NCBI GenBank assembly: GCA_965223905.1
Contig: CBDCXV010000011.1
Location: 1,152,001-1,216,000, forward strand
Length of the DNA stretch: 64,000 nucleotides
Source of the DNA: Candidatus Latescibacterota bacterium
Lineage (GTDB): Bacteria; Latescibacterota; UBA2968; UBA8231
Reading direction: 5' to 3'
Shown: in pieces, positions 25,907 to 56,810 of the stretch
Layout: each line of letters opens with the position of its first letter
Position numbering within the stretch: position 1 is the first letter of the stretch
Program-made: the position numbers and the translations under genes
The notes under the pieces: model-generated
What the model was told of the DNA's origin: nothing
Databases searched by the model: none
The model's input: only the letters and a program-made list of their open reading frames with translations

Positions 25907-26670
25907 TTACCTCAGCAGGGTCATCTTGCGCACCAGGGCCTTGTCCCCTGCGGCGAGCCGGTAGAGGTAGACGCCGGCGGCCACGGGGCGGCCCTGCTCG
26001 TCGCGGCCCTCCCAGTCCACCTGGTGTATCCCGGCGGTCAGGGTGCGGTTGGGTATCAGGGTTTTGACCACCTGCCCGGCGAGGCTGTAGATGACCGGGG
26101 AGGCCTCCCCGGTTTCAGTCAGCTGGAAATAGAGGGTCGTGCTGGGGTTGAAGGGGTTGGTCACCGTGGCCCGCAGCTGCTTGCCGACATCGGCGGCCAC
26201 CGGCGTGTAGCGGGACAGGGCTCCGGCGTGATTCGTAGTTCAACAGCGACGAACCGTTGTCCACAAGCGGCGTTCCAATTCAACACACCAGTCATTGCGG
26301 GACGCGTCGTCCTCGTCGTTGGACGAGCGGAAGGTGATCCCTGGAGAGCTGGCATCGAGAGTCCCGGCAACGATGAGCTCGGAGCGAGTGCCGTCGTTGT
26401 CGTTCTCGGTGTTGGTGTCATCGCTGTTGGCGACGAATTCGACCGTCGCCCGGGGATCGAGCGTCAACGTTATCCCCGACGGAATGGTCACGTCGCCGGT
26501 CAGGGTGACGGAATCATCCCACGGCTCGATGCGGAACAGTTTGCCCTCGCCGGCATCCAATTCAGACGCGTCCAGCGTCACCGTCGTCGTCCGCGTGCCC
26601 GTGGTCCCACACTGCGTGTTGACCACCATCAGATAGCGCGTGCCGTCCGTATGGGTGAAGGCGCCCAAGA
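25907..26670 (-). pseudogene. Collapsed relic of a paralog of the giant surface protein
   Basis: YLMVVN segment resembles YVLVVN of the giant protein; YTPVAADVGKQLRATV is fused directly to NPFNPSTT...RKMTLLR (FlgD-Ig tail). Confidence 0.7.
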
Positions 26671-27510: not shown

Positions 27511-30500
27511 TCATCTCAGCAGGGTCATTTTCTGTGTGAGGGATTTGTCTCCGGCGGTGAGGCGGTAGAGGTAGACGCCGGCGCCTACCGGGCGGCCCTG
27601 CTCGTCGCGCCCTTCCCAGAAGACTTGGTGGATTCCGGCTTTCAGGGTGCGGCCGCGAATCAAGGTCTTCACCACCTGGCCGGCGAGGTTGTAGATGACC
27701 AGGGAGCCCTCTGCGCTTTCGGGCACCTGGAAGTAGATCGTCGTGCTGGGGTTGAACGGATTGGGCGCGGCCAGGGCGGCCAATCCTTCCATGCCCGTCA
27801 GCACCATCTGCTCGGCCAGGGCCTTGGCCGCGGCCGAGCGGGTTATGGCCGATCCCGAGTTGGACCAAGGCCCTGTGCCCTCGCGGCTGGTGGCCTTCAA
27901 GCGGACGGTGTACAGGGTGTATGCAGGCAGGCCCGTCAGCGTCTTACTGGTCACCCGGCCGAGCGTCGTTTCCGAGCATACGGCCTGACGCGGCGCATCG
28001 GAGTCGTCCTTCTCCTCCTCCGGCGGATCCTCCTCCGACCGGAAAGCAGGGTAGCAGTATTGCATGGTGTAGCCGGTGACGGGCGCGCCGCTCGTCGGGT
28101 GAGACCAGCTGATGTCGAGTTTGCCCGTGCCCGACGAAGGCACCCTGACCGTCGGGACCGTCATCTTGCTGGGCGGGCCGATGTCCTGAACGATGGCGTT
28201 GATCAGCTTGTTGCTGTTAGCCGAAGGGTTGCCGTCGTCAGTAGCCCGGATCCTGACCACATAGATGTTGTTGGTATTCGCATCGGTGGGATTCTCGTAA
28301 TCCGGCGCCGACTCGAACCTCAGGGTCAGGCTCGAACCCGACGAGGTGAAGGAGAACTCGTCGCTGTCCGTGCTGTAGATGTCCCAGGTAATGCCGTCCC
28401 CTTCGGCGTCGGTGGCCGTATACGTGCCCACGGCGGTGGTGTTCTCGTTGACATTCAGGCGCCCCGTGCCTGAAATCACCGGAGCCGTATTGGCCCGCGT
28501 GTAGGTCCTTCGTATGGCCGACCAGGGACTGTCTCCCTCGTCGCTGGTCGCTTTCACGCGAACCGAGTATCGGGTCCCGGAGCGCAGGTTCTCCAGGGTC
28601 GTGCTCGTGGTACCGGCCTCGAAGGGCAAGGTGGTCGTGGAGCTGCAGGCGTTGGTTTGGCAATACTGCAGCTTCCATCCTGTGACTGGGGCATCGCTGG
28701 CCGACGTGGACCACCCGACGTCCAGTTCTTCGTGTCCATTGGTAGCCGGAACCGTGACGGTGACCGTGGGCTTCCCCGGCGGCTCCACGTCCAGGATGTT
28801 GACGGTCACCGCCCGGCTGGCCGAGGACGACGACGAGCAGCCGCCCCGGGCCCGGATCGTGACCTGGTACTGGCGGGAATCGGTCTCGTAGTCGGGGGCG
28901 CTGCGGAAGCTCAAGGTGCCCCCGGAGAAATTGAACGCGCTCGCGTCGGCCCCTCCCAGCGGCAACCAGCGGCCGCCGCCGCCGTCCGGGTCGCTGAGGG
29001 AATAGCTGGCCACCGCGGTGGTGTTCTCGGGGATCGACTGGGACGTGGGACCCGAGATCGTCGGGGCACCGCAGTCGGTGCGGCCGCTGCCGGCGGCCCA
29101 GCCGCTGGTGCCCTCGTCGTTGGCGGCATTCACCTGCACTTCGTACGCGGTGTTGGGCGTAAGGCTCGAAATCGTCGTCGAGGTCCCGGTGCCCGAAAAC
29201 GAGTGCGTGCGCCAGTTTCCCGAGGCCCGGTATTGCACGTCGTAGTCGGTGACCGGCGGCCGGCCGCTGGTGTTGGGCGCGTCCCATTCCACCTCCACAC
29301 TCGTGCGCCCCGCCGCCGACACCCGCACATTGGACGGCGGTCCCGGCGGCTCGTCGACATCGGTCACGTTCACGGTTACCGTCTCGGTGTCGGACGCCCC
29401 CTTCGGGTCCGTCGCCCGGACGGTCAGGCTGTATGAAGTGGTCCCGCTTTCGTAGCTCGGGGCATTCTGGAAGCTCACCTCGCCGCTGCTACTGATCTGG
29501 AAGACGTTCCCGATCACGGACCAGGTGATGGCTTGGCCTTCCGGGTCCGTGGCCGTGAAGGTGGCTACGGACCGGGTGTTCTCCGGCACGGACTGCGTGC
29601 CGGTGTCGTCGATGACCGGCGGCCGGTTCGGCGCCTTCACCGCAGCGGTAGCGTCGCTCTGCGCGCTCTTGCCCGGACCGTGGGCGTCGGTGTAGCCGAC
29701 CGTCGCCCGCAGCTGCTTGCCCACATCCGACGTCACCGGCGTGTAGCGGGACGTGGCCGCAATGGGGTAGCGCGGCGACCGCTCGATAGGCACCCACCCC
29801 GAACTCGCGTCGGCCCGCCGCTGCCACTGCCAGCTAGTGTCCGCCACGCTCCCGTCTACGTCCACCAGGGTGGCCGTCATCCGCCGACCCACCTCCGGCG
29901 ACGACGTCGACAAACGCACCGTGCCGGGGGTGTCGGCCGGCCTCACCGACGACGTCACCGCGCTCTGCGCGCTCTTGTTCGGACCGTGGGCGTCGGTGTA
30001 GCCGACCGTCGCCCGCAGCTGCTTGCCCACATCCGACGTCACCGGCGTGTAGCGGGACGTGGCCGCAATGGGGTAGCGCGCCGACCGCTCGATAGGCACC
30101 CACCCCGAACCCGCGTCGGCCCGCCGCTGCCACTGCCAGCTAGTGTCCGCCACGCTCCCGTCGACGTCCACCAGGGTGGCCGTCATCCGCCGACCTACCT
30201 CCGGCGACGACGTCGACAGTCTCACCGTGCCGGGGGTGTCGGCCGGCCTCACCGACGACGTCACCGCGCTCTGCGCGCTCTTGTTCGGACCGTGGGCGTC
30301 GGTGTAGCCGACCGTCGCCCGCAGCTGCTTGCCCACATCCGACGTCACCGGCGTGTAGCGGGACGTGGCCGCAATGGGGTAGCGCGCCGACCGCTCGATA
30401 GGCACCCACCCCGAACTCGCGTCGGCCCGCCGCTGCCACTGCCAGCTAGTGTCCGCCACGCTCCCGTCGACGTCCACCAGGGTGGCCGTCATCCGCCGAC

Positions 30501-30939
30501 CTACCTCCGGCGACGACGTCGACAAACGCACCGTGCCGGGGGTGTCGGCCGGCCTCACCGACGACGTCACCGCGCTCTGCGCGCTCTTGTTCGGACCGTG
30601 GGCGTCGGTGTAGCCGACCGTCGCCCGCAGCTGCTTGCCCACATCCGCCGTCACCGGCGTGTAGCGGGACGTGGCCGCAATGGGGTAGCGCGCCGACCGC
30701 TCGATAGGCACCCACCCCGAACCCGCGTCGGCCCGCCGCTGCCACTGCCAGCTAGTGTCCGCCACGCTCCCGTCGACGTCCACCAGGGTGGCCGTCATCC
30801 GCTGACCCACCTCCGGCGACGCCGTCGACAAACGCACCGTGCCGGGGGTGTCGCCGTCGTCGTCAACCAGCCTCACCGTAGCGGTTGCGTGCGTGCCCGT
30901 GCTCACCCTCTCCGGCAGATCCCCGAATCCCAACGCCAC
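27511..30939 (-). pseudogene. 3' half of a giant surface protein gene (102-aa repeats, cadherin-like, Fn3, FlgD-Ig tail)
   Basis: Begins mid-domain (VALGFGDLP) at the TSD; ATDPEG/PDYE cadherin motifs, LTPNTAYEVQV Fn3, PNPFNPSTT tail. Confidence 0.85.
29655..30853. repeat. Four near-identical 306-bp coding tandem repeats
   Basis: GTGCCGGGGGTGTC recurs at 29921, 30227, 30533 and 30839. Confidence 0.95.
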
Positions 30940-31233
30940 GGGAATTATATAGATAACTACGCAAGCGCAACTTTAGTAATCTCATCCGCGAATTTAAAGA
31001 AAATCTGGTATAATATAATAGAGAAAATACCAGAGAGAAGGACATCCCGGTCCTCAAAGTGTTTAGCTCGGAGCACGGAAGCATGTCAGATTGACACCGT
31101 GCATTAAGCTACTGGGGTGAGGAATCATTCCGTTTGGTTGACAAGCGAGCAAGGAGGGTGACTGAGGATTTCTCGGTTGCAGGCTGCCGGGAGCAGGCAG
31201 CGGGTTTGTCATCTTGCTGGCTATTCGAAAAGA
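30940..31233. repeat. Left long terminal inverted repeat
   Basis: Imperfect inverted match to 56521-56810; homology continues through the transposase 3' remnant to ~31490. Confidence 0.9.
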
Positions 31234-31490
31234 CTCGCCCTTTCCTTCGACCGATGATGAGTGAAGGGAACCGGAGGGACCTCCGTCTCCAGAAGGTCCC
31301 GGTAGGTCAGCCGTTTCCCCACCATCCCGGAAGCAAGCAGTTCCATCTGTTCCAGGATATCCATTCCTCGGATATTGTACCTGCCTGCGCGAACTCGTTG
31401 AGGTATCGGGGAAAATACTTCGGAGATACGTGGCAATACCCGTGATAGGTTCCTTTCGCCAGAGCATTAAACGATTCCGCACGGTTCGTT
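31221..31490 (-). pseudogene. 3' remnant of the terminal IS1595 transposase
   Basis: TNRAESFNALAK...SPKYFPRYLNE and GRYNIRGMDILEQMELLASG match the 55371-56381 protein; frameshifted. Confidence 0.88.
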
Positions 31491-31968
31491 CCGGCGCCCC
31501 TGGGGACGCAGGTTCCGTTTTCGTGTTTCTCCATGCACTCACTGCACCTGTCTGGTTCTTCAGGGAGACCCAGCACCGACTCTTTTTCCCCAGGCGTTGT
31601 GGTGGGGCCATTGGGAGCAGTCTCGGCACCAGTGCCATACGTTGCTGCCTCATTTTCTTCGGTAAGTAGGCAATTTTTTTTCCTGATCGTTAAAAACACA
31701 AACGACGCTTGCACCGCTGTTGGGACGTCTCCGACGACCCCCCAACTGAGACGACGAGAACCTATAACCCTGAGCGCAAGATAGCTGGATAGCTCCATTG
31801 AGCACTCATCACATGCTCTCATTTTTTCCGCCGTCGCCGCCCGCAGGCGGGGCGTTGGAGAGAATAGGTTTTTTGCAGAGGCTGATAAATCAGTCCTCTA
31901 CATATTTTTAACCAAATTAGTGTGAGTTTCGTTACTTACCGGGTGGGTTTGAGTCCTAACTCAACGGC

Positions 31969-33354
31969 TTATCCCTCTTGTAGTTCGGAAACCTCAACCT
32001 TTATGGATTTTCCTGTAACCACTTCAATAGTAGTTTCGATTAAACTTGAGTTTCTCTTTGCTCTACTTTTATGCACTGCGTTTTCAGGAGTAAAATGAAG
32101 CGTCAGTGTGTGTCCATCAGAAGTCATGACACTGGTATTGCAAAGAGCATCGTACAGAGATTGTCGGGATTGCTTAAAAGTTTCTACGACCTTTATCCAG
32201 TTTTCCTCCGAAAGGACAGTATTATTGGTCCCCACTTTATCCTTTGTTATAATTGTCCTGGACCTCCGAACCGATTTCTTCCCCTCAAGATAACGAATAC
32301 AATCCTTAATCGACCTCGCATCGAATTCACCTCCAATTATGTGGCTATGGTTCCTTATAATTTCAGGTGCATCGGGAGAAGAGTTTTTATCGATGACAAC
32401 GATAGCGGGGATTTCACCAAGAGGGTCATTTAAATTATCACTAATACCTTCCTCCAAAATTTGATTAATCTGTTCATCTCTAAATGAGTATCCGACAAAT
32501 ATCAATTTGTCAGCCTCCGTTGATATGTCCTTGAGATCACCATAAAACGAGCCAAAGGGAAAGGGGACATCCTTTAATGATCGTCCTTTAAACCCCGGAT
32601 ACAGTATTGCCATGTCTGCTGGATCGAAAAGTCTCCCGATTAAATCACTGCACTGTATTTCCTCGCCAACACGCCTCCAATTCGTTGATCCATGTAGCTT
32701 TGTAAGACTGCCTTTCGTTCTTTCAGACCTAAATGATATCCGGCGCTCCATATTCAATACAGTTGTTCCCCCTGGCTTGGTCACCATCCCGTCTTCTATA
32801 GGAAATTTATTATGAATTATGGTTCCCTCAAACACCTTGTCATAGTTTGTAGTGAAGATATTCAGAGGAAGAGATCCTATTCCCAAAAGGTTTTTAATAA
32901 ACTCAGCCCAAAGATTGGTTTGATAAAATTCATCGCTATTATCCATCCCATATATTTCGTGAATTCTCTTCCATATCGAATTCCTTATATCCTTTAAGTC
33001 TGCTTCTGTCGATGCAGATTCATTCGGATTACAATACATCGTCTCATGATTAACGTCTTTCATCTTTGCACTCGTGGACATCATCCATCCTGGGAATTTT
33101 TGGGGATCTCTTATATCAGACAAGAGGTTTTCAAATTCTTGCATTTCCCATAGAACTTGCTCGATATCTACTATAACCTCCGTCCCTACGGTTCTATTTT
33201 TCCCCCGCAAAAACTCATATGCATTCTGAAACCAACGGGATCCCCAAATATCTGGTTCTTCTTCTTGGAGACGATGGAAAAACTCCACTGTAGTGGGAAA
33301 CTTCTCTTTATCCAAAGCATACGACCCTCCAGCGCCAACAAATAGCAAGATCAT
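31969..33354 (-). CDS. SIR2-like (SIR2_2) protein with a C-terminal DnaX-C-like domain
   Basis: LFVGAGGS, IFTTNYD, KLHGS.NW, IFVGYSFRDEQIN; AT-rich gene. Confidence 0.85.
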   Translation of the reverse strand: MILLFVGAGGSYALDKEKFPTTVEFFHRLQEEEPDIWGSRWFQNAYEFLRGKNRTVGTEVIVDIEQVLWEMQEFENLLSDIRDPQKFPGWMMSTSAKMKDVNHETMYCNPNESASTEADLKDIRNSIWKRIHEIYGMDNSDEFYQTNLWAEFIKNLLGIGSLPLNIFTTNYDKVFEGTIIHNKFPIEDGMVTKPGGTTVLNMERRISFRSERTKGSLTKLHGSTNWRRVGEEIQCSDLIGRLFDPADMAILYPGFKGRSLKDVPFPFGSFYGDLKDISTEADKLIFVGYSFRDEQINQILEEGISDNLNDPLGEIPAIVVIDKNSSPDAPEIIRNHSHIIGGEFDARSIKDCIRYLEGKKSVRRSRTIITKDKVGTNNTVLSEENWIKVVETFKQSRQSLYDALCNTSVMTSDGHTLTLHFTPENAVHKSRAKRNSSLIETTIEVVTGKSIKVEVSELQEG

Positions 33355-33409
33355 AGAATTAGTCCCTTTCGCTATCGTTCCTTCTTCACAGCTCCCCAGC
33401 TTGGCGGGA

Positions 33410-33850
33410 TCACTGTAGTCGTAATCTCCATTCCCGCAGTTGTTCCCCCGTAATTCTACCCGCTAAAAACAGTTCTACTTGCTCAGCGAATTCCCTGGGT
33501 ATGGAAAGGAGATCCCTCACAACTCTAAGGTTGAACTCGCCTGAACTTGCAGGGAATAAGAACCACGTAGAATATCCCCTGGATACCGGATATCCTGCGG
33601 TTTCATAAAACCATCGAATCCCCAAAGAAGGGACAATTGCGCCGTTATCATGCTCCCACCCCAGCGCAATGACGGCCCATCTTTCATCTATGCTCTTGTC
33701 CACAACTACGTAGGTACGACCCCCTACCCTTCTCTGAGGAGAATCGATTTCCAATATCTGGTTGTCGTTCCTTATCGGGAACCTTCTTCCGCCGTCTTGT
33801 CTTGCCATTTGGTTCTTTTCTCTATCTTGACAGAGTTCTGCTCCTGTCAT
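33410..33850 (-). CDS. Conserved-looking hypothetical protein
   Basis: SP...WAVIALGW...LGIRWF...GYPVSRGYSTWFLFP; translationally coupled to the upstream ORF. Confidence 0.65.
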   Translation of the reverse strand: MTGAELCQDREKNQMARQDGGRRFPIRNDNQILEIDSPQRRVGGRTYVVVDKSIDERWAVIALGWEHDNGAIVPSLGIRWFYETAGYPVSRGYSTWFLFPASSGEFNLRVVRDLLSIPREFAEQVELFLAGRITGEQLREWRLRLQ

Positions 33851-34071
33851 GGTCTCTGTTTCAGCCAGCCCCAGCTTGCCGAAGTCACGGCAGTCGGGAT
33901 TTCCGGAGTCTCTGTCTCTGGGAGCTCGGATATGATGTCATCCTTCACAACCGCCACTGCCCACCGGAAAGCGTCGTTATCTAATGTCGCAAAGTAGATC
34001 AACCCCGCTGGGTAATCCATTGATGGGTTGTAGTGAAAGACGGCGCGGAACACCGATGTAGCTGTTCCCAT
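33847..34071 (-). CDS. Small protein with C-terminal WGxxK motif
   Basis: Ends IPTAVTSASWGWLKQRP; follows a promoter and operator. Confidence 0.55.
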   Translation of the reverse strand: MGTATSVFRAVFHYNPSMDYPAGLIYFATLDNDAFRWAVAVVKDDIISELPETETPEIPTAVTSASWGWLKQRP

Positions 34072-36056: not shown

Positions 36057-37631
36057 GGGTGTCTTAGCTGATTGTTACGGTTTCGGTGGTTGTTTTTAGG
36101 TTTTCTCGGTACTGCTGAAAGACCCGGTCAAGCGTTCCATTGTACAAGGCGCAGCGCAGGGCCAGAATGGCGTTGCTGTTTTCCTTATACCACCAAGCGC
36201 CCGACCGTTTCAGACGAACGTGGCCGATGAAGCGATGCGCCGATTCGATCGCCCCCGACCCGATCGGGTATCCGCCCTTGCGATGGCTGCCGAAATCGAC
36301 CTGGTGCAGTCGCTTTTGCAGGTAGGTCAAGGCCGTGCCGATGGCCTCTCCGGCCTCTTCCGAGAGCGGCTGCATGCGCTGCAGACCCCAGACCACGCCG
36401 CTGCCCTCGCCGCAGAACAGGCGCGCCAGGGTCGCTTCCAGCCAATGGGCAGCACGCGCCGCATCGGCGCCGTATTGGGCCTCGGCCACCGCGTGCAGGT
36501 AGCTGCTGCAATGGTAGTAGTCGAGGATCTGACGGGCGCTCGGGAACAGCTCTTCCACCCACTTCCAGATCCACGGAGCGCCATCTCCGATGGCACACAA
36601 GCGCACCTGATCCTCCGGGATCAGCCCCGCCTCCTTGACCTGGCGCAAGGCCGCGCCGAAGGCCTGTTCGTTGCCCATCTGGTGCCAGGAGATCAGCTGC
36701 TCGATGCGCTCATCGTCTATCAGGTAGAAGCGAAAGCCCTTGGCTTCGTGGTATTCCCCCTGCCAACGCCTTCGCCGAGCCCGGCTCTTCTTGCGTCCGG
36801 GACGGGTGCCTTTGGCGGTCTGGGGACGACTGGGCACGTCGGCCGCGTCGATGGCCAACACCACGATCGGCCGCCACTTGCGACCGGCGGCGGCTTGCGC
36901 AATGCGATCCTGGATATCGGCCGCGTCCGGACACACCTGCAGCACGTCCAACGACCCGGTCTGTTGCAGCACCTCGTGAATCACACAATCGCTCATCGAC
37001 GCGTCGGTGAGCTCGTCCAACAGTTCGGCGGCGCGCCGGTGGGGCATCTCCAGCCCCAGCTTGACCCCGGCCTGCTGCACGTCCCACTGCTTGCGCTGCG
37101 CCGACAGGCCCAGGGCCTCGTCCAGCGGATAGAACCCGTGGTGACAGCCAACGCAGTAGAAATAGGGACGCTCCAAGGTCACCGGCCCGAGCAGCGTCTC
37201 CACCGTGCGCGAGCGAGACGGGCGCGCTCGCAGCAGGCCTTTGCACTTGGGGCAGGCCGCCTCTTCCTGGGCCAGGAAATGGCCGTGGCGGCGTTCGACG
37301 AAGGCTTCCACCAAGGCCGCGGTGAGCCCGGAGCGCTCTTGAGACATCGCCGCGGTGATCTCCATCAACGTCGGCGCACAAGATCCGCGCTCGCTCATTT
37401 GCGTCTCCACCCGATCCAGCCATTGGTCCAAGGCTTCATGCGCCCGGCTTCGAAAGCGGTCCTGACTCTGCCGCTCCTGAAAAACTTCCAGAGAGAGAAT
37501 CGCACTCATCGCTCCCCTTCTTTCTGAAATCAGGGGAGCGCGCCGCAGGGGATGCGGAAAAAGAAAGCAACTTACTGTAAAATATACACATACGCACCTG
37601 AATTGCGCTATAACAATTACTTAAGACGCCC
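36057..37631 (-). mobile_element. ISKra4-family IS (1,575 bp)
   Basis: Imperfect TIRs GGGTGTCTTAGCTGATTGTTA / GGGCGTCTTAAGTAATTGTTA; TSD AGAGGAAC at 36049-36056 and 37632-37639. Confidence 0.88.
36064..37509 (-). CDS. ISKra4-family transposase
   Basis: CPKC..TLLG...RPYFYC..C, AIDA, IGDGAPWI, LDYYH, PIGSGAIESA. Confidence 0.9.
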   Translation of the reverse strand: MSAILSLEVFQERQSQDRFRSRAHEALDQWLDRVETQMSERGSCAPTLMEITAAMSQERSGLTAALVEAFVERRHGHFLAQEEAACPKCKGLLRARPSRSRTVETLLGPVTLERPYFYCVGCHHGFYPLDEALGLSAQRKQWDVQQAGVKLGLEMPHRRAAELLDELTDASMSDCVIHEVLQQTGSLDVLQVCPDAADIQDRIAQAAAGRKWRPIVVLAIDAADVPSRPQTAKGTRPGRKKSRARRRRWQGEYHEAKGFRFYLIDDERIEQLISWHQMGNEQAFGAALRQVKEAGLIPEDQVRLCAIGDGAPWIWKWVEELFPSARQILDYYHCSSYLHAVAEAQYGADAARAAHWLEATLARLFCGEGSGVVWGLQRMQPLSEEAGEAIGTALTYLQKRLHQVDFGSHRKGGYPIGSGAIESAHRFIGHVRLKRSGAWWYKENSNAILALRCALYNGTLDRVFQQYRENLKTTTETVTIS

Positions 37632-37758: not shown

Positions 37759-38802
37759 TTATTCCTGACCTCCTATGATAGCCTTGAGTTCTCCCCAGGA
37801 GGTCTGTTCGATGGAAGTGGGAATGTCGGGAGTATCGTATTCCCATAGTTTTATAAGACTGTCTGTTCCGGCACTGGCAAGGTATCGGGAAGACATAGCG
37901 AGGGCCGTTAGTTCGTTAAATAAATACCCCTCTCTCCCCTCGTGATGTTCCAGGGTTGCAGTAGGTTCCCAGGTGACGGTGCTGAGTATTTCGATTGCCC
38001 ACGATTCAGCTAACGAAACTGCAAGCAAATTGCTATCTGGAGAGAATGACATTTCTCCAACTGGCTTGTTGAAATACGAAGATATTCCCCAGGTATTAGT
38101 GTCCCACACTTTGAGCCTATTGTTGTTGGATATGCTGGCAAGTAACCGGCCATCGGGAGAAAATTCAAGATTAGTGACATCCCAATGGTCTGAGCCCAAC
38201 AGGGTGACGATTTTCTCTCCTGTTTCTGTATTCCATATGTATATAATGTCGTCTGTTGTCCCTGTTGCCAGCATGTTTCCGCCAGGATGGAATGCCAAGA
38301 AAGAGAAATACGGACCGAATTGGTCTCGGGATATTTCCAGCTTAGTGTCGAAGGTTTCTGGATCTACAAGGTATACAATTATATCATTTCCGATTGCAAT
38401 GGTTTCCCCGTCTGAGGATAGCGAAATCAGCAGAAATTCTCTGTTGGCGGAATAGGTTTCTTCTTCAAGGTTGATAATTATTGACCTACCGGAACGCAGG
38501 AAATCCGCCCGACTGTCTCCTCCAAAATCGTTTCCGATACGCCCACTGTTTATTAAGAACTTGCCATCGCGTGAGAACGTCATATGACGCCCACCGGTAA
38601 GGTTGAGCGGTTCTATCTCTTCCTCTCCGGATTCGATATTCCAAATCCTGATTTTCCCACCCCCGGTGCTTGCCAGACGGTTTCCATCTGGCGAAAACGC
38701 CAGTGAGTTTGTTGCGTATAACGATGGAGTATCTGGAATAAGAAATTCTTTATCGGAGGCAGATACTGCGGCAGCCAGCAGACACAGCAGTAGAAACGTC
38801 AT
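37759..38802 (-). CDS. Secreted WD40-repeat protein with C-terminal WGxxK motif
   Basis: Signal peptide, FSPDG..LAS...I(R/K)(I/L/V)W repeats, ends PTSIEQTSWGELKA. Confidence 0.88.
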   Translation of the reverse strand: MTFLLLCLLAAAVSASDKEFLIPDTPSLYATNSLAFSPDGNRLASTGGGKIRIWNIESGEEEIEPLNLTGGRHMTFSRDGKFLINSGRIGNDFGGDSRADFLRSGRSIIINLEEETYSANREFLLISLSSDGETIAIGNDIIVYLVDPETFDTKLEISRDQFGPYFSFLAFHPGGNMLATGTTDDIIYIWNTETGEKIVTLLGSDHWDVTNLEFSPDGRLLASISNNNRLKVWDTNTWGISSYFNKPVGEMSFSPDSNLLAVSLAESWAIEILSTVTWEPTATLEHHEGREGYLFNELTALAMSSRYLASAGTDSLIKLWEYDTPDIPTSIEQTSWGELKAIIGGQE

Positions 38803-39396: not shown

Positions 39397-40389
39397 TTAC
39401 TTCACCAGATTCCGATACAACAGCCGTTTCCCCACCATCCGGGCAACGACGTCTTCCATCTGCTCGATGGTGTCCTTGTCGCGGATGTTGTGCCTTCCGA
39501 CAAACTCGTCTACGTATCGCTGTAAGTGCTTGGGGGACATGGAGTGATAGGTTCCCTTGTATCCTCGCTTGATATTTGACCAGAAGCTTTCGATGCCGTT
39601 GGTGTGGGAACCATCGGTAGAGAACTGGCCTTTTGAGTGAATGACGAACTCGGATTTTCCCGGCCACTTGAAATCCTTCAAAGCACTTGCCCCGTCGCTG
39701 TAAAGGGTGCCGTTTACTCTCAGGTGCTTCCGGGCGAATGCTCTCAGAATGTCCGCAGTTTCCGCAGGAATTACGCTCGCTGCGACCTTGCCGGTTTTCC
39801 TGTCCTTCATACCGACGACGATGGTTTTTCCATCCATCCATCGTTCCCGCAGTTTCTTGTCGGCATGTTTGTTGGCCTCCTTTCCGCCTATATAGGCTTG
39901 GTCGATCTCGCCTCTCTTGCTTCTGAGCTTCTCTTGATCAGACCATGCCTCCCTGATGCGGTGCGCCATGAACCAGGCCGTTTTCTGCGTCACCCGGAGG
40001 TCCCGGTGTAGCTTCATGCTGGACACGCCTTTCAGGCTGGACAGGTGCAGGTAGATGGCAATTGCCCATTTTTGATACGAGATATGGGAGCATTCGAGCA
40101 CCGTTCCAGTGCGAACGGAGAACCGTTTGCGGCAGTCTCCGCACCAGTAAGCCTGCGGTTTGCGGTTCGGGCATTCGGAAATCATGCCGTAACATCCGCA
40201 ATGGGGGCAGTATATTTCCTTGGGCCATCGAACATCCTCGAACCACTGTTCCGCCGTTCTGTTGTCCGGGAACTTCTCGAACAGCTCGATCAGGGATACG
40301 CCTTTCCTGTCGTTCCTTCCCGGCCCTTCCGGTACAAGGCCTCTTCCGGCTTTCGACCAGCGGCCCAGGAATCGCTTCAATAGTTTCAT
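39397..40389 (-). CDS. IS1595-family transposase (internal paralog)
   Basis: CPHCG, YWCGDC, FSVRTGT, EIDQAYIGG, LYSDG, HTNGIESFW, HLQRYVDEF. Confidence 0.92.
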   Translation of the reverse strand: MKLLKRFLGRWSKAGRGLVPEGPGRNDRKGVSLIELFEKFPDNRTAEQWFEDVRWPKEIYCPHCGCYGMISECPNRKPQAYWCGDCRKRFSVRTGTVLECSHISYQKWAIAIYLHLSSLKGVSSMKLHRDLRVTQKTAWFMAHRIREAWSDQEKLRSKRGEIDQAYIGGKEANKHADKKLRERWMDGKTIVVGMKDRKTGKVAASVIPAETADILRAFARKHLRVNGTLYSDGASALKDFKWPGKSEFVIHSKGQFSTDGSHTNGIESFWSNIKRGYKGTYHSMSPKHLQRYVDEFVGRHNIRDKDTIEQMEDVVARMVGKRLLYRNLVK

Positions 40390-40890
40390 GAGTTCCTTTC
40401 TGGTGAGAATGGGGGGGAGCGGGTTGTCGGGATCGAGTCCCCCGCGCAGGTCGTTCCGAGACCCCTGGCAGGTTGACAAACGGCTGCAACGGGTGTCCCG
40501 CTCCCCTATAGGTCTTTGGAAACTGCCGGATCTCCGCTCAGGTGATTGTGAACGGGAATGATCGAACAGGTTCCCTAATGACGGCGGACTTGAAGACTTC
40601 CCGAGGATGCACCAGGGAGGCCGTCTGGCTGCCTAATCGAGGTTATTTCGGGGGGGCGACTACCCGGTTCCGGGCACCGGGGTGGAGGACGACAAAAAAT
40701 CCCCTGTCGGCCATTCGAGACAGGCGGTTACGTCACCCGGGGTCACAAACGGTTACGGCCCGAATGCCCAGGTCAAACCGAAATCCTGAAATTGTCGGTG
40801 TTCACCGACAGTAGAAACAGGGTAGCGGTCAGCAGACCCGGGAAGGAATGACGCCTCCCCGGGCTCCCCTCTGAAGGGCACCGCCCTGTC

Positions 40891-41679
40891 CTACTTGCCC
40901 GATCCTGCCTCCGGGTTGTCGGTGTTTTCCCGGGATACAGGCGCTGCTGTCGTCCTTGCCTCGCCCGATCCCGGATCTTCGCTGTTTACCGAAAAGGCGC
41001 TGTGGGAGTATATCTGCTGCTGATCGACTGAAGTTGTTTCCTTGGGAGTCCCCTTTTCCTCAAGCTGGCGTTTGAGCTGCTTGTTTTCCTGGAGCAGCTC
41101 GGCGATCCTTTCCTCGGCAACGCGCAGTTCATCCTCGGTCTTGCGCAGTTCGGCAACTTCTTCCTCGGCTTTGCTCAGTTTTTTCCCGGTCTCGCGCAGC
41201 TTGTCGCGGAGCTGCTGAATCTCCTGCGGGGACTCGATTTCGACGGGAAGCGACGGAGTGCCTTCGCCGTCAGTGACTTCCTCCTGCTGCACGGATGAGG
41301 CTTTCCCTTCAGCCACATCGGGTTCGACCTCCCTGGCCGGCTCCTTGCGTTTCGAACGGGCAGGTTGCCAGGCCTTCAAAGCCTGATCCACCGAGTTAAA
41401 TTTCCCAATTTGGGATATTTCATCATACTGCTCTGAGAGCTTCATCCATCGATGGGCCGTGCTCGTGGGGATGCCGGCGGACTTCAGCCATTCCCCCCAC
41501 TTTCCATGCGGCAGCTCTTTTTTGACCTCGCACAACGCCCGGCCGCATTCCCAGACTTCCTTAATGGTGTTCCTGAAAAATCGATTGGCAGATTTCCAAT
41601 GCTCGATTGCCCGACTCTGAGCATCGCTCAGGTCGGAGTTTTCTGCTTTCGTCTCCATTTTTCCCGATTCCTGTTCCAT
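40891..41679 (-). CDS. DUF3102-domain protein with coiled coil
   Basis: GRALCEVKKELPHGKWGEWL...TAHRWMKL. Confidence 0.8.
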   Translation of the reverse strand: MEQESGKMETKAENSDLSDAQSRAIEHWKSANRFFRNTIKEVWECGRALCEVKKELPHGKWGEWLKSAGIPTSTAHRWMKLSEQYDEISQIGKFNSVDQALKAWQPARSKRKEPAREVEPDVAEGKASSVQQEEVTDGEGTPSLPVEIESPQEIQQLRDKLRETGKKLSKAEEEVAELRKTEDELRVAEERIAELLQENKQLKRQLEEKGTPKETTSVDQQQIYSHSAFSVNSEDPGSGEARTTAAPVSRENTDNPEAGSGK

Positions 41680-42586: not shown

Positions 42587-43027
42587 TCAGACAATCCCGA
42601 GCTCCTTCATGGACACGCTTCCGCCAGGAGGGGCAACGATTACATGATCCATAACGTCGATTCCTACGAGATGCCCCGCATCGCGCAAGCGGTGCGTCAG
42701 ACTGATATCCTCTTTCGACGGCGCAGGATCGCCGGAGGGGTGATTGTGGGCCAGCACGATGCCATCGGCACCCTTGAGAATCGCGGCCTTGAACACTTCC
42801 CGAGGGTGCACGAGGGACGCAGTCTGACTGCCGATGGAGGTGATTTCGTGGGCGATGACGCGGTTCCGGGTGTCGAGGTGGAGGACAACGAAAACCTCCC
42901 TGTCCGAATTCCGGAAATCATCCAAGCTGTCCAGGTAAGTAATAACGTCGCCGGGGCCGACAAGGGCCTCGCTGCACACGTCTTGCCATATCTGCTTCAC
43001 GGTTCGTTCTACGACTTCGAGTTTCAT
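42587..43027 (-). CDS. RadC-like JAB-domain protein (JAB domain only)
   Basis: REVF..LHLD, VHPREVFK, AHNHPSGDPAPSKED, MDHVIV. Confidence 0.93.
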   Translation of the reverse strand: MKLEVVERTVKQIWQDVCSEALVGPGDVITYLDSLDDFRNSDREVFVVLHLDTRNRVIAHEITSIGSQTASLVHPREVFKAAILKGADGIVLAHNHPSGDPAPSKEDISLTHRLRDAGHLVGIDVMDHVIVAPPGGSVSMKELGIV

Positions 43028-43059
43028 ACGAGGGTCCTTTCTTGAAAGGAAAGAGGAAA

Positions 43060-43677
43060 ATGACAAACCTCCTGCAACCGGATGAGGCATTGGCCGTCAT
43101 CATCGGAGACGCGCCGCTGACCCGGACGGAGGTAGTCAAGAAACTGTGGGGTTATATCAGGGAGAACGGATTACAGGACGCGAAGAATCCGCACTATATC
43201 AATGCCGACGACAATCTCAGGAAGGTGTTTGGCGGCAAGGAGCAGGTGACCCTGTTGGAGTTGACCAGGCTGGTCAACAAACACCTGTTCGTCGGCGCTG
43301 AAGGCGAAGCGGTAACGGACGAGGAGCTTGAGAGGGAGTTCGAGGAACAGGTGCTGGCGGGGTCTTACGAGACGCTGGGATGCTCGCCGGAGATCTCCGA
43401 CGCGGAACTGAAACAGAAATACCGGGAATTATCTCGGGAATATCACCCGGACAGGCTGGTAGGCGAGGAGATTCCCGCAAGTATCGTCAAGCTCGCGAAG
43501 GAACGGAACACGAGCTCGCGAACTTCCCCTCCGTGCTTCTGGCGGTGTGCGGTGGCTTCCGGAAGGGTTTCGAACCGGTCAACCTTGCCTTCCTTCACTA
43601 CTACCCAGCGACGGATAACCCATCGGGGTAGGTCTACTTCGTCGGGCATTTTTTGTCCTCACTCTTTTCGACGATAA
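43060..43677 (+). CDS. SWIB/MDM2 domain fused to a truncated DnaJ J-domain
   Basis: RTEVVKKLWGYIRENGLQD...INADDNL (SWIB); YETLG...YRELSREYHPD (J-domain); the sequence after ~43505 is unrelated. Confidence 0.75.
   Translation: MTNLLQPDEALAVIIGDAPLTRTEVVKKLWGYIRENGLQDAKNPHYINADDNLRKVFGGKEQVTLLELTRLVNKHLFVGAEGEAVTDEELEREFEEQVLAGSYETLGCSPEISDAELKQKYRELSREYHPDRLVGEEIPASIVKLAKERNTSSRTSPPCFWRCAVASGRVSNRSTLPSFTTTQRRITHRGRSTSSGIFCPHSFRR
43443..43649 (-). CDS. Small hypothetical protein, copy 1
   Basis: MPDEVDLPRWVIRRWVVVK, duplicated at 44171-44389 with the protein conserved. Confidence 0.6.
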   Translation of the reverse strand: MPDEVDLPRWVIRRWVVVKEGKVDRFETLPEATAHRQKHGGEVRELVFRSFASLTILAGISSPTSLSG

Positions 43678-44170: not shown

Positions 44171-44389
44171 CTAATCCCCGTCAGCCCTGATCCAGCCCTT
44201 GTTAGGCTGGTAGTTCTGAGGAATCGTTTTGACGCTTGACAAACGAAACTCCAACTCGCGTACTTCGCCGCCGCACTCCTGCTTGTGCGCGGTGGCCTCT
44301 GGCAGGGTCTCGAAGCGGTGCACCTTGCCGTCTTTCACTACAACCCAGCGACGGATTACCCAGCGGGGTAGGTCTACTTCGTCGGGCAT
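44171..44389 (-). CDS. Small hypothetical protein, copy 2
   Basis: Paralog of 43443-43649; coupled to the upstream SWIB gene. Confidence 0.6.
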   Translation of the reverse strand: MPDEVDLPRWVIRRWVVVKDGKVHRFETLPEATAHKQECGGEVRELEFRLSSVKTIPQNYQPNKGWIRADGD

Positions 44390-44634
44390 TAGACATTCCT
44401 TCCTGTTGGGGTTATGTGATTCTTCAGGACCTCGGTTAGCTCCTTCGCAGACACCTTGTCCCGATCCACCAGAGCGCGTAGAGTGGCATCTACGTTGATG
44501 TATGGAGGCTCGGCTTCCAGATTGTTTTCCTTGATATGATCGCCTACCAGTTCGATGATCTTTACCCAGGACAACGGGGTATCCCCGACAATGACAGCAA
44601 GCGCGGGAGAGGGTTGATGTAGTTCAGAAGTCAT
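44389..44634 (-). CDS. Stand-alone SWIB/MDM2-domain protein
   Basis: QPSPALAVIVGDTPL...HIKENNL...YINVDATL, similar to the SWIB domain at 43060. Confidence 0.75.
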   Translation of the reverse strand: MTSELHQPSPALAVIVGDTPLSWVKIIELVGDHIKENNLEAEPPYINVDATLRALVDRDKVSAKELTEVLKNHITPTGRNV

Positions 44635-44903
44635 CCTTTTTTCACCGCCAGTTCCCTGATCTCCTCCAGGGCGGTTTCCAGGTATGGATCTATGATGCCC
44701 TCGCTTTCTCCGAACATTTCCAACAGAGCGAAGGTGAGACAAATAGCCTGTGGTGCCGACACCGGTAGGGCTATCCCTCCCATCTCGGGGTGACTGAAGA
44801 AGATTGCAACGCAAGCTGGCTCTGTGTCCGCCATCAGGTGAACTTTCTCGAAGGAGATTTCTCGATAGACGGATTCGATCTTACTTCTCGTTTCGTCTTT
44901 CAT
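44631..44903 (-). CDS. Hypothetical protein
   Basis: AAAGGA RBS, stop overlaps the next start. Confidence 0.55.
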   Translation of the reverse strand: MKDETRSKIESVYREISFEKVHLMADTEPACVAIFFSHPEMGGIALPVSAPQAICLTFALLEMFGESEGIIDPYLETALEEIRELAVKKG

Positions 44904-49002: not shown

Positions 49003-49413
49003 GTAAGTTGTATATAAAGCGAACAAGTCCTATTCCCAGAACATATCGCAGCCAGTGTTTCTTGAGACGGCTTCGATTTCTTTCGTTCTTTCCATTAGAT
49101 AGTGGCAGAGGGAACCGAAAGGCGGGTCTTGACGAATCGGCAAAATGCCAGGAGTTCTCTTTCCGGCTCAAGGGACTACGCTCGTGGGGCATAGTTCAAC
49201 AGACGGACAAGAGGCTTCAGCCAATTGCCTGCCAATCTACTCGATCCCCCCTGCCAAAAACTGTCCGTCATCGTCGGATGTTCTCTTTTCCTCTTCGGGG
49301 TCTTCCTTCTCGCTGCACGGGATGCATATGTGCTCGTCGGGGGTGGGCATATAGAACAGGTGATATGGCCTGATTTCCTGGCCGCATACGCAGCAGACCG
49401 TCTTGAAAACCAT

Positions 49414-49863
49414 TTACTGCCTCGTGTCCCGGATTCTGCCCTCCTCGTCCACGAAGATCCGGAATGGCGAGGCCACCATTCTACGACAGGACTTGGTAAG
49501 GGCATGCACGCACTCGATGCAGATATCGAACTTCCTCCAATCCGTCATGCTGGCCGTTCCGACCTTGAGCTGCCCCCGCAAGTCGTCTTCGGAGGCGACC
49601 CCGTTGCAGATATCACAGATTGTGGTTCCCATTTTCGTTCTCCTTTCTCGGTGGATTTGATGCTTTGTAGGACAGGCGTAAGCCATTTTCCTGGTGATGG
49701 ATGATCGCCCCATGAGGCAGAGATACCTTTCCGGCATCGTTCGCTTCCCCTTCTCCCACAGGCACACTTCGGCTTCACTGACACCAAGGGCGATGCCCAG
49801 CTCCCACTGCTTCATGCCCAAGGCGTCTCTCGCCCTTTTCAGCTGATCTTGCGTCATCTTCAT
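49414..49863 (-). pseudogene. XRE HTH regulator, frameshifted into the downstream CxxC ORF
   Basis: Identical to the 51813 protein until LMG, then a one-base deletion (ATGGGGCGATC vs ATGGGGGCGATC). Confidence 0.75.
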
Positions 49864-49885
49864 TCTCCATTTCGAGGGGGTGATT

Positions 49886-49976
49886 TGTCGGTGGTCACCG
49901 ACAGAAGGACACAGAACGGCCCTGAACCGGCCTGACGGGGCCGGGTGTTGACAGGTATTCGGGTTCCCGTTAGAAT
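49886..49976 (+). promoter_or_regulatory. Palindromic operator plus consensus sigma70 promoter
   Basis: TGTCGGTGGTCACCGACA 49886-49903; TTGACA 49948-49953, 17-bp spacer, TAGAAT 49971-49976. Confidence 0.75.
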
Positions 49977-50081
49977 CGAAAACTGAGGTTCGAACGGTAG
50001 CGGATTCAGCGAGCGGGTCGCGGGAACTGCCTCTGCTTCACTTCATTGCAATGAGCATGGACCCGAGGGAGCGGAAGACCC

Positions 50082-50904: not shown

Positions 50905-51445
50905 GGGCTCCTTTTTAGTGATTTTTCGGGGCACGATACCTTCAAAACAGGCAGTTAGGGAGAACCACCTATGTCCAGCCCTCTTTCTGCTGGCCCGAGT
51001 TGTCCTTTGTGCAACGGGTACCTTTGTCCGCCAGAAGAAATTTCAGAAGAGTTGAAGAGGTTGAGCTTTGACCGAAACCTACCTGCTTCCGTGCGGGCTA
51101 CTCGCATTGTAAATATCGCCGCTCGGCATGGTGGAAGCTGGTGGTGTGCGGCAGTCCTGGGATATTCGACAGTGCTGAGGAGGCCAAAAGCGATGCACTG
51201 GAAAAACTGGCTGCTTTATCCTGCCAGATCGAACAACCAGTTGCGCACGCGCTTCATTGGGTACTGGAGAGCTTCGGGGAGCGGTGAGTGGCAGAGGGAA
51301 CCGAAAGGCGGGTCTTGACGAATCGGCAAAATGCAGGAGTGCTCTTTCCGGCTCAAGGGACTACGCTCGTGGGGCACAGTTCAACAGACGGACAAGAGAC
51401 TTCAGCCAATTGCCTGCCAACCTACTCGATTCCTCCTGCCACAAA

Positions 51446-51598
51446 CTATCCGTCATCGTCGGCAGTTCTCTTTTCTTTTTCGGGATCTTCCTTCTCGCTG
51501 CAGGGGATGCATATGTGCTCGCCGGGGGTGGGCATATAGAACAGGTGATATGGCCTGATTTCCTGACCGCATACACAGCAGACCGGCTTGAATACCAT
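51446..51598 (-). CDS. Small zinc-ribbon-like protein
   Basis: CCVC...CIPC; second copy starts at 49413. Confidence 0.5.
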   Translation of the reverse strand: MVFKPVCCVCGQEIRPYHLFYMPTPGEHICIPCSEKEDPEKEKRTADDDG

Positions 51599-51600
51599 TT

Positions 51601-51813
51601 TTACGACCCAGCTTTGTAGGACAGGCGTAAACCATTTTCCTGGTGATGGATGATCGCCCCCATGAGACAGAGATACCTTTCCGGCATCGTTCGCTTCCCC
51701 TTCTCCCACAGGCACACTTCGGCCTCACTGACTCCAAGGGCGATGCCCAGCTCCCACTGCTTCATGCCCAAGGCGTCTCTCGCCCTTTTCAGCTGGTCTT
51801 GCTTCATCTTCAT
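51601..51813 (-). CDS. XRE-family HTH regulator (intact copy)
   Basis: LKRARDALGMKQWELGIALGVSEAEVCLWEKGKR; GGAG RBS. Confidence 0.88.
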   Translation of the reverse strand: MKMKQDQLKRARDALGMKQWELGIALGVSEAEVCLWEKGKRTMPERYLCLMGAIIHHQENGLRLSYKAGS

Positions 51814-51834
51814 TCTCCATTATTCGGGGTTGTT

Positions 51835-51926
51835 TGTCGGTGACCACCGACAGAAGGACACAGAACCGGCCCTGAGACAGCCTGACGGGGCCGGGTGTTG
51901 ACAGGGTATTCGTGTTCCGGTAGGAT
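51835..51926 (+). promoter_or_regulatory. Palindromic operator plus sigma70 promoter
   Basis: TGTCGGTGACCACCGACA 51835-51852; TTGACA 51898-51903, 17-bp spacer, TAGGAT 51921-51926. Confidence 0.75.
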
Positions 51927-52257
51927 CAGGACTGGAGGGTGGAAATACCGTTGCAGAATTCAGCGAGCCGGTAAGGGCAACTGCGTTGACTCGCTAACTT
52001 GCCGTTTTCTGCAAGAAGGGTCGGTATGGACTCAGCGTGAGATTAGGGAAACGGAGAACGACAGAAGGAAAGCCGGGTCCCGGGTCGCCTCTGTCCGGAG
52101 GTGCTGGCGGAGTTGGATACCGTGATTCGGATGCAGTCTTTCGGATTCCTGAAGCGCGCCGAGCAGGTCCTGCAGTGAGGGAAATAAACGTCTTTCTCTA
52201 TTATGTTATACCAGATTTTCAGCGAAATCGCGCTTTTGAATCGGTATTCTACCGCTC

Positions 52258-56520: not shown

Positions 56521-56810
56521 TCTTTTCGAATAGTCAGCAAGATGACAACCGCTGCCTGCTCCCGTCAACCTGCAATCGAGGAATCAGCTTTCCCTCCTTG
56601 CTCGCTTGTCAACCAAACGGAATGATTCCTCACCCCGGCGGCTTAACCCGTGGTGTCAATCTGACATTCTTCCATGTTCGGGGCTAAACACTTTGAGGAC
56701 CTGGATGTCCTTCTCTCTGGTATTTTCTCTACTATATTATACCAGATTTTCTTTAAATTCGCGGATGAGATTACTAAAGTTGTGCTTGCGTAGTTATCTA
56801 TATAATTCCC
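56521..56810. repeat. Right long terminal inverted repeat
   Basis: Inverted match to 30940-31233. Confidence 0.9.

Follow-up and report, generated by a model that had tools for sequence, protein, structure and literature searches.

Why should a bacterial sirtuin of a defence-associated type end in a domain of the replication machinery? The question is raised by a gene in a 64,000-nucleotide stretch of Candidatus Latescibacterota bacterium DNA (assembly GCA_965223905.1, contig CBDCXV010000011.1, positions 1,152,001 to 1,216,000), which we refer to in its entirety as the window. The gene lies on the minus strand at window coordinates 31969..33354 and is an uninterrupted, ATG-initiated open reading frame (ORF) of 461 codons plus a stop; it encodes a SIR2 domain, a linker and a domain related to the C-terminus of DnaX (tau), and thus contains the SIR2 head and ~80-residue tail that the original prediction, made from the sequence alone, had placed there. 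Infection sensing by single-protein abortive-infection effectors is known for few sensors only, and the ancestry of this tail gives a concrete guess at a trigger, namely phage proteins that engage tau. Tentatively, and with confidence a little short of even, we propose that the protein is a single-polypeptide SIR2-type abortive-infection NADase, in which the tau-derived tail would bait a phage protein that docks on tau and the ensuing clustering would unleash NAD+ breakdown.

The source annotation reports a shorter protein. Its gene call, P0001 (window 31969-33081), begins at M92 and gives a product of only 370 aa, which removes a conserved N-terminal strand-loop, MILLFVGAGGS; the loop is common to all 12 aligned family members, and M1, I2, L3, F5, G7, A8 and G9 are invariant among them. 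Two homologues, P0002 (455 aa, 57% identity) and P0003 (460 aa, 44% identity), span 98-100% of the 461-aa query. Because the N-terminal residues are conserved throughout the aligned family and two homologues are full-length, we take the 461-aa form to be the real one, and the 370-aa call probably reflects a wrongly annotated start codon. The sequence AAGGGA (33363..33368, minus strand), 8 nt upstream of the ATG at 33354, reads as a possible ribosome-binding site and is placed so as to fit the 461-aa start rather than the 370-aa call. A scan for promoters and terminators over window positions 31.0 to 36.2 kb gave sites no more numerous than in shuffled sequence.

The SIR2_2 core occupies aa 1-358 (32281..33354, minus strand) and consists of a Rossmann-type large domain with a helical insert, as indicated by Pfam, Foldseek and phmmer. 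Pfam SIR2_2 (PF13289) matches aa 166-326 with an E-value of 7.3e-11 and 42.8 bits, above the gathering cut-off of 24.5. A glycine-rich loop, G7-A8-G9-G10-S11 (33322..33336, minus strand), follows the first strand (predicted as E2-6), and from its place in sirtuin folds we presume it to be the NAD-binding loop. The putative catalytic Asn and Asp belong to a TTNYD motif (N170-Y171-D172; 32839..32847, minus strand) and the putative catalytic His to a KLHGS motif (H221; 32692..32694, minus strand). In the phmmer alignment N170, D172 and H221 sit on N163, D165 and H212 of the Paenibacillus sirtuin PsSIR2 (the H212 position being counted by hand from the printed alignment), and all three are invariant in the 12 family members. 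The PsSIR2 residues are described as putative catalytic residues in passages of PMC11472057, where catalytic mutants lose protection. Given this correspondence the enzyme looks catalytically competent, and the complete SIR2_2 motif set claimed in the original prediction is borne out; the core looks like an intact sirtuin of the defence-associated type.

Structural comparison places this core with the sirtuins of SIR2-HerA systems. An AlphaFold2 model of the whole protein has a mean predicted local distance difference test score (pLDDT) of 78.7, and in a Foldseek search with this model all of the top 12 rows are SIR2-HerA entries (best 8suw_B, E 5.6e-11; entries extending to E 1.6e-10; 8w9l_A with a TMq of 0.51), indicating a fold of the HerA-associated type. 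Avs5, KomBC, DSR2 and SPARSA follow at E-values of 1e-5 to 1e-4. A phmmer search of solved structures returned only two sequences, both SIR2-HerA sirtuins (8w9l_A at E 2.4e-7, the other at E 4.3e-6). The SIR2-HerA system (Nezha; Paenibacillus PsSIR2 8w9l and E. coli SIR2 8suw) therefore provides, among solved structures, the nearest one and the only relative by sequence, sharing the TTNYD and KLHGS motifs and a core of ~350 aa. It differs in that no HerA gene is found near the window gene, identity in the structural alignment is only 14-18%, and PsSIR2 has no tau-like tail.

Two other systems offer partial parallels. DSR1 and DSR2 follow the same logic of a single gene with an N-terminal SIR2 NADase followed by a sensor at the C-terminus (in the window protein, a candidate sensor), and the DSR2 C-terminal domain is described as binding phage tail tube. 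DSR proteins are ~1000 aa long (932-1000 for the targets matched) with large helical sensors, whereas the window protein has 461 aa and an 80-aa host-derived candidate sensor; the Foldseek similarity to DSR is weak (E ~1e-4) and the NCBIfam SIR2_antiphage score is far below cut-off. Thoeris ThsA combines a C-terminal SLOG/STALD or Macro sensor with a nearby ThsB (TIR), which neither the window protein nor its locus matches, and the PADLOC ThsA models gave only E 0.014-0.016 on short stretches.

The core is joined to the tail by a linker of aa 359-379 (32218..32280, minus strand) that is predicted to be disordered (pLDDT below 50 for aa 359-378) and is poorly conserved (31% identity to P0002 and 12% to P0003). 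The tail itself, aa 380-461 (31972..32217, minus strand), was characterised by Pfam, BLASTP, profile search, AlphaFold2 and VIA-align. Its best Pfam match, over aa 383-455, is DnaX_C (PF20964; E 8.2e-5, 23.0 bits, below the 26.2 cut-off) and the second is DnaA_N-like_STI, the DnaA_N-like domain of plant STICHEL (E 0.0052), so that the two candidates picked out by eye in the original prediction, DnaX and DnaA, are the top two matches. When the genome was searched with DnaX_C in six frames, the window tail scored 25.6 bits. The P0002 and P0003 tails independently match DnaX_C/DnaA_N-like_STI at E-values of 2e-4 to 3e-4, that of P0003 reaching 21.7 bits on DnaX_C and that of P0002 matching only the related DnaA_N-like_STI, and two DnaX equivalog models of NCBIfam match the tail weakly with their C-terminal ends.

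Alignment to the dnaX product of this genome (contig C9, L001:229-1857; 542 aa, 39.7 bits on DnaX_C) gave the same assignment for all three tails. BLASTP aligns window residues 386-453 with residues 438-505 of resident DnaX at 28% identity over 68 aa (pairwise E 4e-9), the P0002 tail at 33% over 78 aa (pairwise E 3e-8), and the P0003 tail with residues 428-508 at 60% over 81 aa (pairwise E 1e-26). Searching 1,835,955,588 representatives with a hidden Markov model (HMM) built from the three tails gave 103 matches at E <= 1e-3, comprising the three tails themselves and 100 others. Pfam was run on 84 of these 100 and identified 73 with DnaX_C, three that are DnaX by their ATPase and domain-III matches and one with tau_5; four were unrelated repeat proteins and three had no Pfam match. 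The other 16 are 536-593 aa long and are matched near residues 430-540, as for full-length DnaX. Four residues conserved across DnaX_C (W386, L404, N435 and G448) are kept in the tails. The tail, of unambiguous ancestry, is on these alignments and searches truly homologous to the C-terminal domain of DnaX (tau), and the by-eye assignment to gamma/tau is upheld by the top Pfam match, by the resident-DnaX alignments and by a profile search that retrieves almost only DnaX. It resembles PF20964 and E. coli tau domain V (PF12170) in sequence, in fold and in the conserved W, L, N and G, and differs in being detached from the clamp-loader ATPase, in lacking the extreme C-terminal motif and in scoring 23.0 against the 26.2 bits of the cut-off.

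The fold of the tail points to the same group of replisome modules. An AlphaFold2 model of the tail alone (pLDDT 86) has two helices, two strands, two helices and one strand, and VIA-align finds DnaA domain I nearest to it (4tps_D, Z 9.2, root-mean-square deviation 2.5 Å, 80 aa aligned; also 2e0g, Z 7.8, and 2wp0, Z 7.4), followed by the KH-like domain of DciA (7ykm, Z 7.4) and, lower in the ranking, by tau domain V of E. coli as it stands within the polymerase complex (5fku_E residues 517-594, Z 5.9). Foldseek against the Protein Data Bank (PDB) gave nothing at E <= 1e-3, the two families ranked top by VIA-align appearing at 2.7e-3 and 6.5e-3. The structural comparison proposed earlier for residues ~380-461 was thus weak with Foldseek (best E 2.7e-3) and positive with VIA-align, which returned a KH-like fold. 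As modelled, the fold of the tail belongs with the KH-like class of DnaA domain I, and the alternative that the domain is DnaA domain I was right as to the nearest solved fold and wrong as to the nearest sequence family.

What might a SIR2 enzyme gain from such a tail? In the scheme we propose, the SIR2 core would be inactive at rest and the tau-like tail would act as bait for a phage protein that normally docks on host tau; candidate ligands are tau inhibitors of phage origin and phage replicative helicases or polymerases that call in the replisome of the host. A multimeric phage partner would then bring SIR2 cores together, leading to NAD+ breakdown and abortion of the infection, and the gene is carried as cargo of an IS1595-bounded mobile island. 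The decoy for phage replisome inhibitors of the original prediction is one form of this bait idea, beside a bait for replisome hijackers. Passages of published reports bear on its parts. The phage SPP1 helicase gp40 binds host Bacillus subtilis DnaX and recruits the replisome (PMC6316719); both Pol III alpha and DnaB dock on the C-terminal part of tau, and the tau of B. subtilis is a binder of the helicase (PMC3643586); assembly activates SIR2_2 enzymes of bacteria and vertebrates, ThsA, Avs5 and the FAM118 sirtuins among them (PMC12700824); and PsSIR2 at rest is autoinhibited by its own small domain and a C-terminal helix (PMC11472057). From such observations we infer a defence role, a phage ligand for the tail and activation by assembly. 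The evidence fits equally well with a bait for tau-hijacking phage proteins, a tether to the partners of tau, or an oligomerisation module. A complex prediction of the tail (supplied as an alignment) with residues 540-1234 of resident DnaE scored 0.00 in a run made without controls, a score that weighs neither for nor against binding, DnaE here being a stand-in from what is probably a recent host.

The fusion recurs, although sparsely. A whole-protein search gave 112 matches, only three of which reach across the tail: P0001 (the window's own), P0002 and P0003. It was an explicit concern of the original prediction that the fusion might be a singleton, and instead it forms three clusters at 44-57% identity. 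These proteins are each other's closest relatives, with 57% and 44% identity to the window protein compared with at most 40% for all other matches. Among the 112, TPR repeats follow the core in 12, most others are ~330-370 aa long and have no tail, and a few have short unassigned tails. Identity of the core to that of the window protein is 60% for P0002 and 50% for P0003, and identity of the tail is 50% and 25% respectively.

We placed the tails among 104 DnaX_C domains in a quick maximum-likelihood tree. The P0003 tail groups with resident DnaX and P0113 (support 86), and the window and P0002 tails group together elsewhere (support 99). A single clade for the three tails is not rejected by the approximately unbiased (AU) test (p 0.63), the constrained tree is 9.5 log-likelihood units better, and the best DnaX group is identical for all three tails, within a DnaX set that is biased by its collection. 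Independent capture of the P0003 tail from the local tau, or its refreshment from that source, was considered and dropped on the AU result and the shared best DnaX group. A single ancient capture is the simplest reading of these trees.

The divergence of the tails bears on whether they still do anything tau-like. A KH-like tail could be a structural accessory that serves self-association or autoinhibition of the SIR2 pocket, its DnaX origin being a historical accident. DnaA domain I, the nearest fold, self-associates. PsSIR2, with its inhibitory small domain and C-terminal helix, provides a case of autoinhibition (PMC11472057, in passages). Divergence has left the window and P0002 tails with ~30% identity to any sampled DnaX, and the drop between the window protein and P0003 from 50% identity in the core to 25% in the tail suggests that the tail has not been held tau-like. 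It is hard to see, on the other hand, why three effector classes would take up the same domain as a generic dimeriser, with copies in TIR and T5orf172 proteins 70-84% identical to DnaX, and the W, L, N and G of DnaX_C are retained in the SIR2 tails. We therefore consider an accessory role improbable.

Those other effector classes emerged from the tail-profile search and Pfam. In P0117 a pair of DnaX_C domains comes after a TIR domain, in P0136 such a pair comes after a T5orf172/MUG113 domain, and P0441 is a second T5orf172-DnaX_C protein. P0117 is alone in having PF20964 among the 120 relatives listed of 454 for its TIR domain, and P0198 seems to be a piece of a near-identical protein. In the tree of 104 domains a single clade (support 98) unites the DnaX_C domains found on TIR and T5orf172 heads. 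Their identity to DnaX proteins, several of them labelled Rubrobacter or Actinomycetota at NCBI, is 70-84%; on these grounds their captures were separate from, and more recent than, the SIR2 one. The three proteins are like the window protein in tail family and in rarity, and unlike it in having another effector-type head and in a tail captured from an Actinomycetota-type DnaX, in one or two tandem copies. As judged from domain matches, three kinds of conflict-type enzymatic head (SIR2, TIR and T5orf172) have taken up the same replisome domain.

Two further carriers of the domain were noted. P0125 (320 aa) has three tandem DnaX_C-like domains, the third of which also matches PolC N-terminus II (PF11490, E 6.5e-12), and because of this double match we suggest that PolC N-terminal domain II and the tau C-terminal domain may be related. 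P0142 (287 aa) has an N-terminal hydrophobic helix, an unassigned region of ~200 aa and a DnaX_C-like end (24.4 bits) that groups with resident-type DnaX in the tree; it is a non-DnaX carrier of the domain.

One reading of the repeated pairing of effector heads with DnaX_C is that the tau C-terminal domain is a recurrent integrated bait, with SIR2, TIR and GIY-YIG-like (T5orf172) effectors each having captured a resident DnaX_C, such that phage docking would trigger NAD+ depletion or nuclease attack; we see this as possible, if doubtful. Another reading of the SIR2 fusion is that the tail is a tether, constantly bound to a normal host partner of tau (Pol III alpha or the replicative helicase), and that SIR2 held at forks modifies replisome proteins by ADP-ribosylation or deacylation, or senses stalled or foreign forks; the protein would then be a regulator or a fork-directed toxin and not a sensor of phage proteins. 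The domain does derive from the alpha- and DnaB-binding part of tau (PMC3643586), the same fold class serves helicase binding in DnaA domain I and DciA, and the T5orf172 nuclease-like fusions with two DnaX_C copies fit the targeting of an enzyme to forks. But the nearest structural relatives of the SIR2_2 cores are defence-system NADases and not protein-modifying sirtuins, and a flexible 20-aa linker with swappable tails (TPR, or none) is more what one would expect of a sensor than of a device for fixed localisation. Nor is a co-adapted housekeeping role likely for a gene that is foreign, at 40% G+C compared with ~70%. Overall we regard a tether as unlikely.

The foreign character of the gene is evident from its surroundings. 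From about 31 to 57 kb of the window the G+C content is 0.40-0.59, down from ~0.70, and this corresponds to a low-G+C mosaic island of ~25.9 kb (30940-56810) bracketed by inverted copies of an IS1595-family insertion sequence (IS) in a composite-transposon-like layout. The left inverted-repeat arm, which forms the island boundary (30940..31158; I1, 219 nt), is 93% complementary to the right arm (56592..56810), and a second inverted repeat, I2, pairs 31243-31388 with 56184-56329 (146 nt, 92%). Next to the right arm is an intact IS1595 transposase gene (55371-56381, plus strand; identified by the repeats and a Pfam scan), a third IS1595-family copy lies at 39397-40479, and an IS1595-family transposase remnant (31307..31822, minus strand; partial DDE_Tnp_IS1595 match, E 2.9e-5; repeats D5 and I2) is directly downstream of the SIR2 gene, which is itself directly inside the left boundary. 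At 40.5% G+C (core 40.6%, tail 40.2%), compared with 68% for the neighbouring chromosomal gene and ~70% for the genome, the SIR2 gene is by composition an import, foreign to this genome. Other island genes encode RadC (42587-43090, minus strand), two SWIB-domain proteins (43042-43677, plus strand; 44389-44814, minus strand), a DUF3102 protein (40891-41679, minus strand), a WD40 protein (37759-38802, minus strand) and a UPF0236-type transposase (36064-37509, minus strand), and many further ORFs have no family.

Lying among IS elements, the gene might be an inactive passenger, that is, an intact ORF that is idle and decaying as cargo. The IS remnant abutting its 3' end, the truncated start chosen by the source annotation, and the fate of a paralogue all lend themselves to this idea. 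The genome carries five other SIR2_2 genes. The core paralogue P0005 (408 aa; G000:C2:488137-489015, L020:1153-2379, minus strand), on contig C2, is 40% identical to the window protein over aa 1-305; its family similarity ends after about aa 330 and its 3' end overlaps a transposase-like ORF (L020:440-1264), for which reasons we think that it was probably cut short by an IS insertion. In the window gene, by contrast, the 461-codon frame is open, every motif is conserved and a plausible ribosome-binding site precedes the long start. Moreover, the full architecture persists in three lineages that are 44-57% identical, an argument for purifying selection on both domains, and an idle passenger seems very improbable.

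The position just inside the boundary could also go with a selfish function. The protein would then be a toxin that depletes NAD+ or interferes with replication, to the advantage of the IS1595-bounded element, which might for example gain from post-segregational killing or from keeping competing elements out; an antidote might be found among the small ORFs upstream. Upstream on the same strand are five small ORFs (146, 74, 122, 69 and 99 aa), then a DUF1232 protein (phrog_14750), the UPF0236-type transposase and the WD40 protein. Two of the small co-oriented ORFs, 33410-33850 and 33847-34071, overlap by 4 nt, and RadC, SWIB and DUF3102 genes are typical of transferable elements. The five small ORFs gave no significant match in Pfam, PADLOC, NCBIfam or PHROGs, the best for the 99-aa ORF being PADLOC Csx1 at E 0.0013, and the 146-aa ORF has only sub-threshold matches in the Atlas (below 0.9, to unnamed clusters). 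With 48-54% G+C for the upstream ORFs compared with 40.5% for the SIR2 gene, the composition is against a co-inherited pair, and no neighbour is conserved at the loci of two family members, L010 and L011, when scanned with Pfam. A selfish or addiction function accordingly has, in our view, only a slim chance of being correct.

We also looked among the neighbours for partners of known SIR2 systems. The original prediction had stated that ThsB, HerA and pAgo partners are absent from the vicinity, and scans of the flanking ORFs with Pfam, PADLOC, NCBIfam and PHROGs agree, finding none of the three. No HerA or other ATPase family was found between ~31.3 and 57 kb among the seven adjoining co-oriented ORFs and, otherwise, ORFs of at least 120 aa, and there is no TIR gene among the neighbours scanned. 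A conserved partner for the SIR2 core family was considered and rejected, there being no common neighbour in the Pfam scans of L010 and L011. At L011:2825-8465 a tail-less family member (347 aa) has a 671-aa AAA_23 ATPase on one side and an AbiEi/AbiEii pair on the other, in an arrangement that is defence-island-like.

Several other features of the window were recorded. At 27511-30939 (minus strand) a 1142-aa secreted-type protein has four near-identical repeats of ~102 aa (306-nt period) followed by fibronectin-like and cadherin-like modules, and ends in a GVYLYRL...KMTLLR motif, as does the ORF at 25907-26200; overlapping antisense ORFs at 27511-30939 are artefacts of high G+C. A ~0.8-kb segment is duplicated at 49101-49994 and 51287-51944, ~1.95-2.19 kb apart and with 73-100% identity (D1, D2, D7-D9 and D11), and each copy holds a promoter-like TTGACA element. 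A 2291-aa ORF (57033-63908, minus strand) starts just outside the right island boundary in the high-G+C flank.

How, then, does the bait proposal fare against the whole of the evidence? In its favour, a constant core with a swappable C-terminal module (DnaX_C, TPR or none) is the usual pattern of sensor modules, and the nearest solved relatives of the core are antiphage sirtuins. The same tau domain is present on two other conflict-type effector domains, TIR and T5orf172, and the modules that share the fold of the tail (DnaA domain I, DciA and tau domain V) are all replisome protein-protein interaction modules. The genomic setting is likewise supportive, with the 40% G+C island and its IS, RadC and SWIB genes, and with the tail-less relative at L011 beside AbiEi/AbiEii.

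A number of observations weigh against it. The only PADLOC models matched were those for generic SIR2 and for pAgo-associated SIR2 (best E 8e-18), and the NCBIfam model SIR2_antiphage (NF042942) scored 17.8 bits against a 500-bit cut-off, on which grounds the protein belongs to no validated defence system. The fusion comprises three clusters only among 1.84 billion representatives. Within the host phylum a relative of the core is present in 5 of 168 genomes, this one included, and the tail is covered in this genome alone; GTDB species genomes, JGI metagenome contigs and IMG/VR contigs yielded no further fusion, with tail-less relatives only at one locus in the genome contigs and two in the metagenome contigs, and none in the viral contigs. 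Such rarity argues against a broadly successful system. The context is not consistently defensive, since the immediate neighbours of the SIR2 gene are unannotatable small ORFs and IS elements, and the tail-less family member at L010 adjoins ThiC. At 28% identity to resident tau the tail would be a poor tau mimic in the present host, and the import of a 40% G+C gene into a ~70% G+C genome weighs likewise against a working mimic here. The tails end directly after the last strand, and without the extreme C-terminal motif conserved in DnaX they cannot reproduce all contacts of the tau C-terminus. Lastly, T5orf172 domains also occur commonly in proteins of phages and mobile elements, so that DnaX_C fusions may serve mobile elements and not host defence.

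The bait proposal invites comparison with the integrated decoys of plant nucleotide-binding leucine-rich repeat (NLR) receptors, such as the WRKY domain of RRS1. Like these, the window protein is an immune-type effector carrying a domain copied from a host protein, which the DnaX alignments and the tail-profile search indicate directly. That phages engage this host protein has a precedent in SPP1 gp40, which binds B. subtilis DnaX (PMC6316719). The window protein differs in having no NLR/STAND module, in having a host origin that is directly visible, and in that its binding and activation are so far predicted. Passages of PMC11702601 present a bacterial integrated decoy as a hypothesis so far, for bNACHT11, a sensor with no identified host homologue. 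Our literature search, covering full text and not supplementary tables, found no description of SIR2, TIR or another defence effector bearing a domain from DnaX or tau, and the preprint 10.1101/2025.09.30.679545 makes no mention of DnaX, DnaA or the replisome. We see in the protein a single-protein SIR2 effector with a new sensor candidate of host derivation.

If the tail is indeed a bait, the protein would be a clear bacterial example of the integrated-decoy principle, would provide an 80-aa handle for retrieving the phage proteins by which the host replisome is hijacked or inhibited, and would explain the presence of the same domain on TIR and T5orf172 proteins. Should the tau C-terminal domain prove to be a bait that recurs across these effectors, they would be the first bacterial counterpart of plant NLR decoys with a host origin readable from sequence, and the tau C-terminus would be marked as a common point of phage attack. 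Were the tail instead a tether or an oligomeriser, the protein would even so be the first case of a sirtuin with a physical link to a replisome module.

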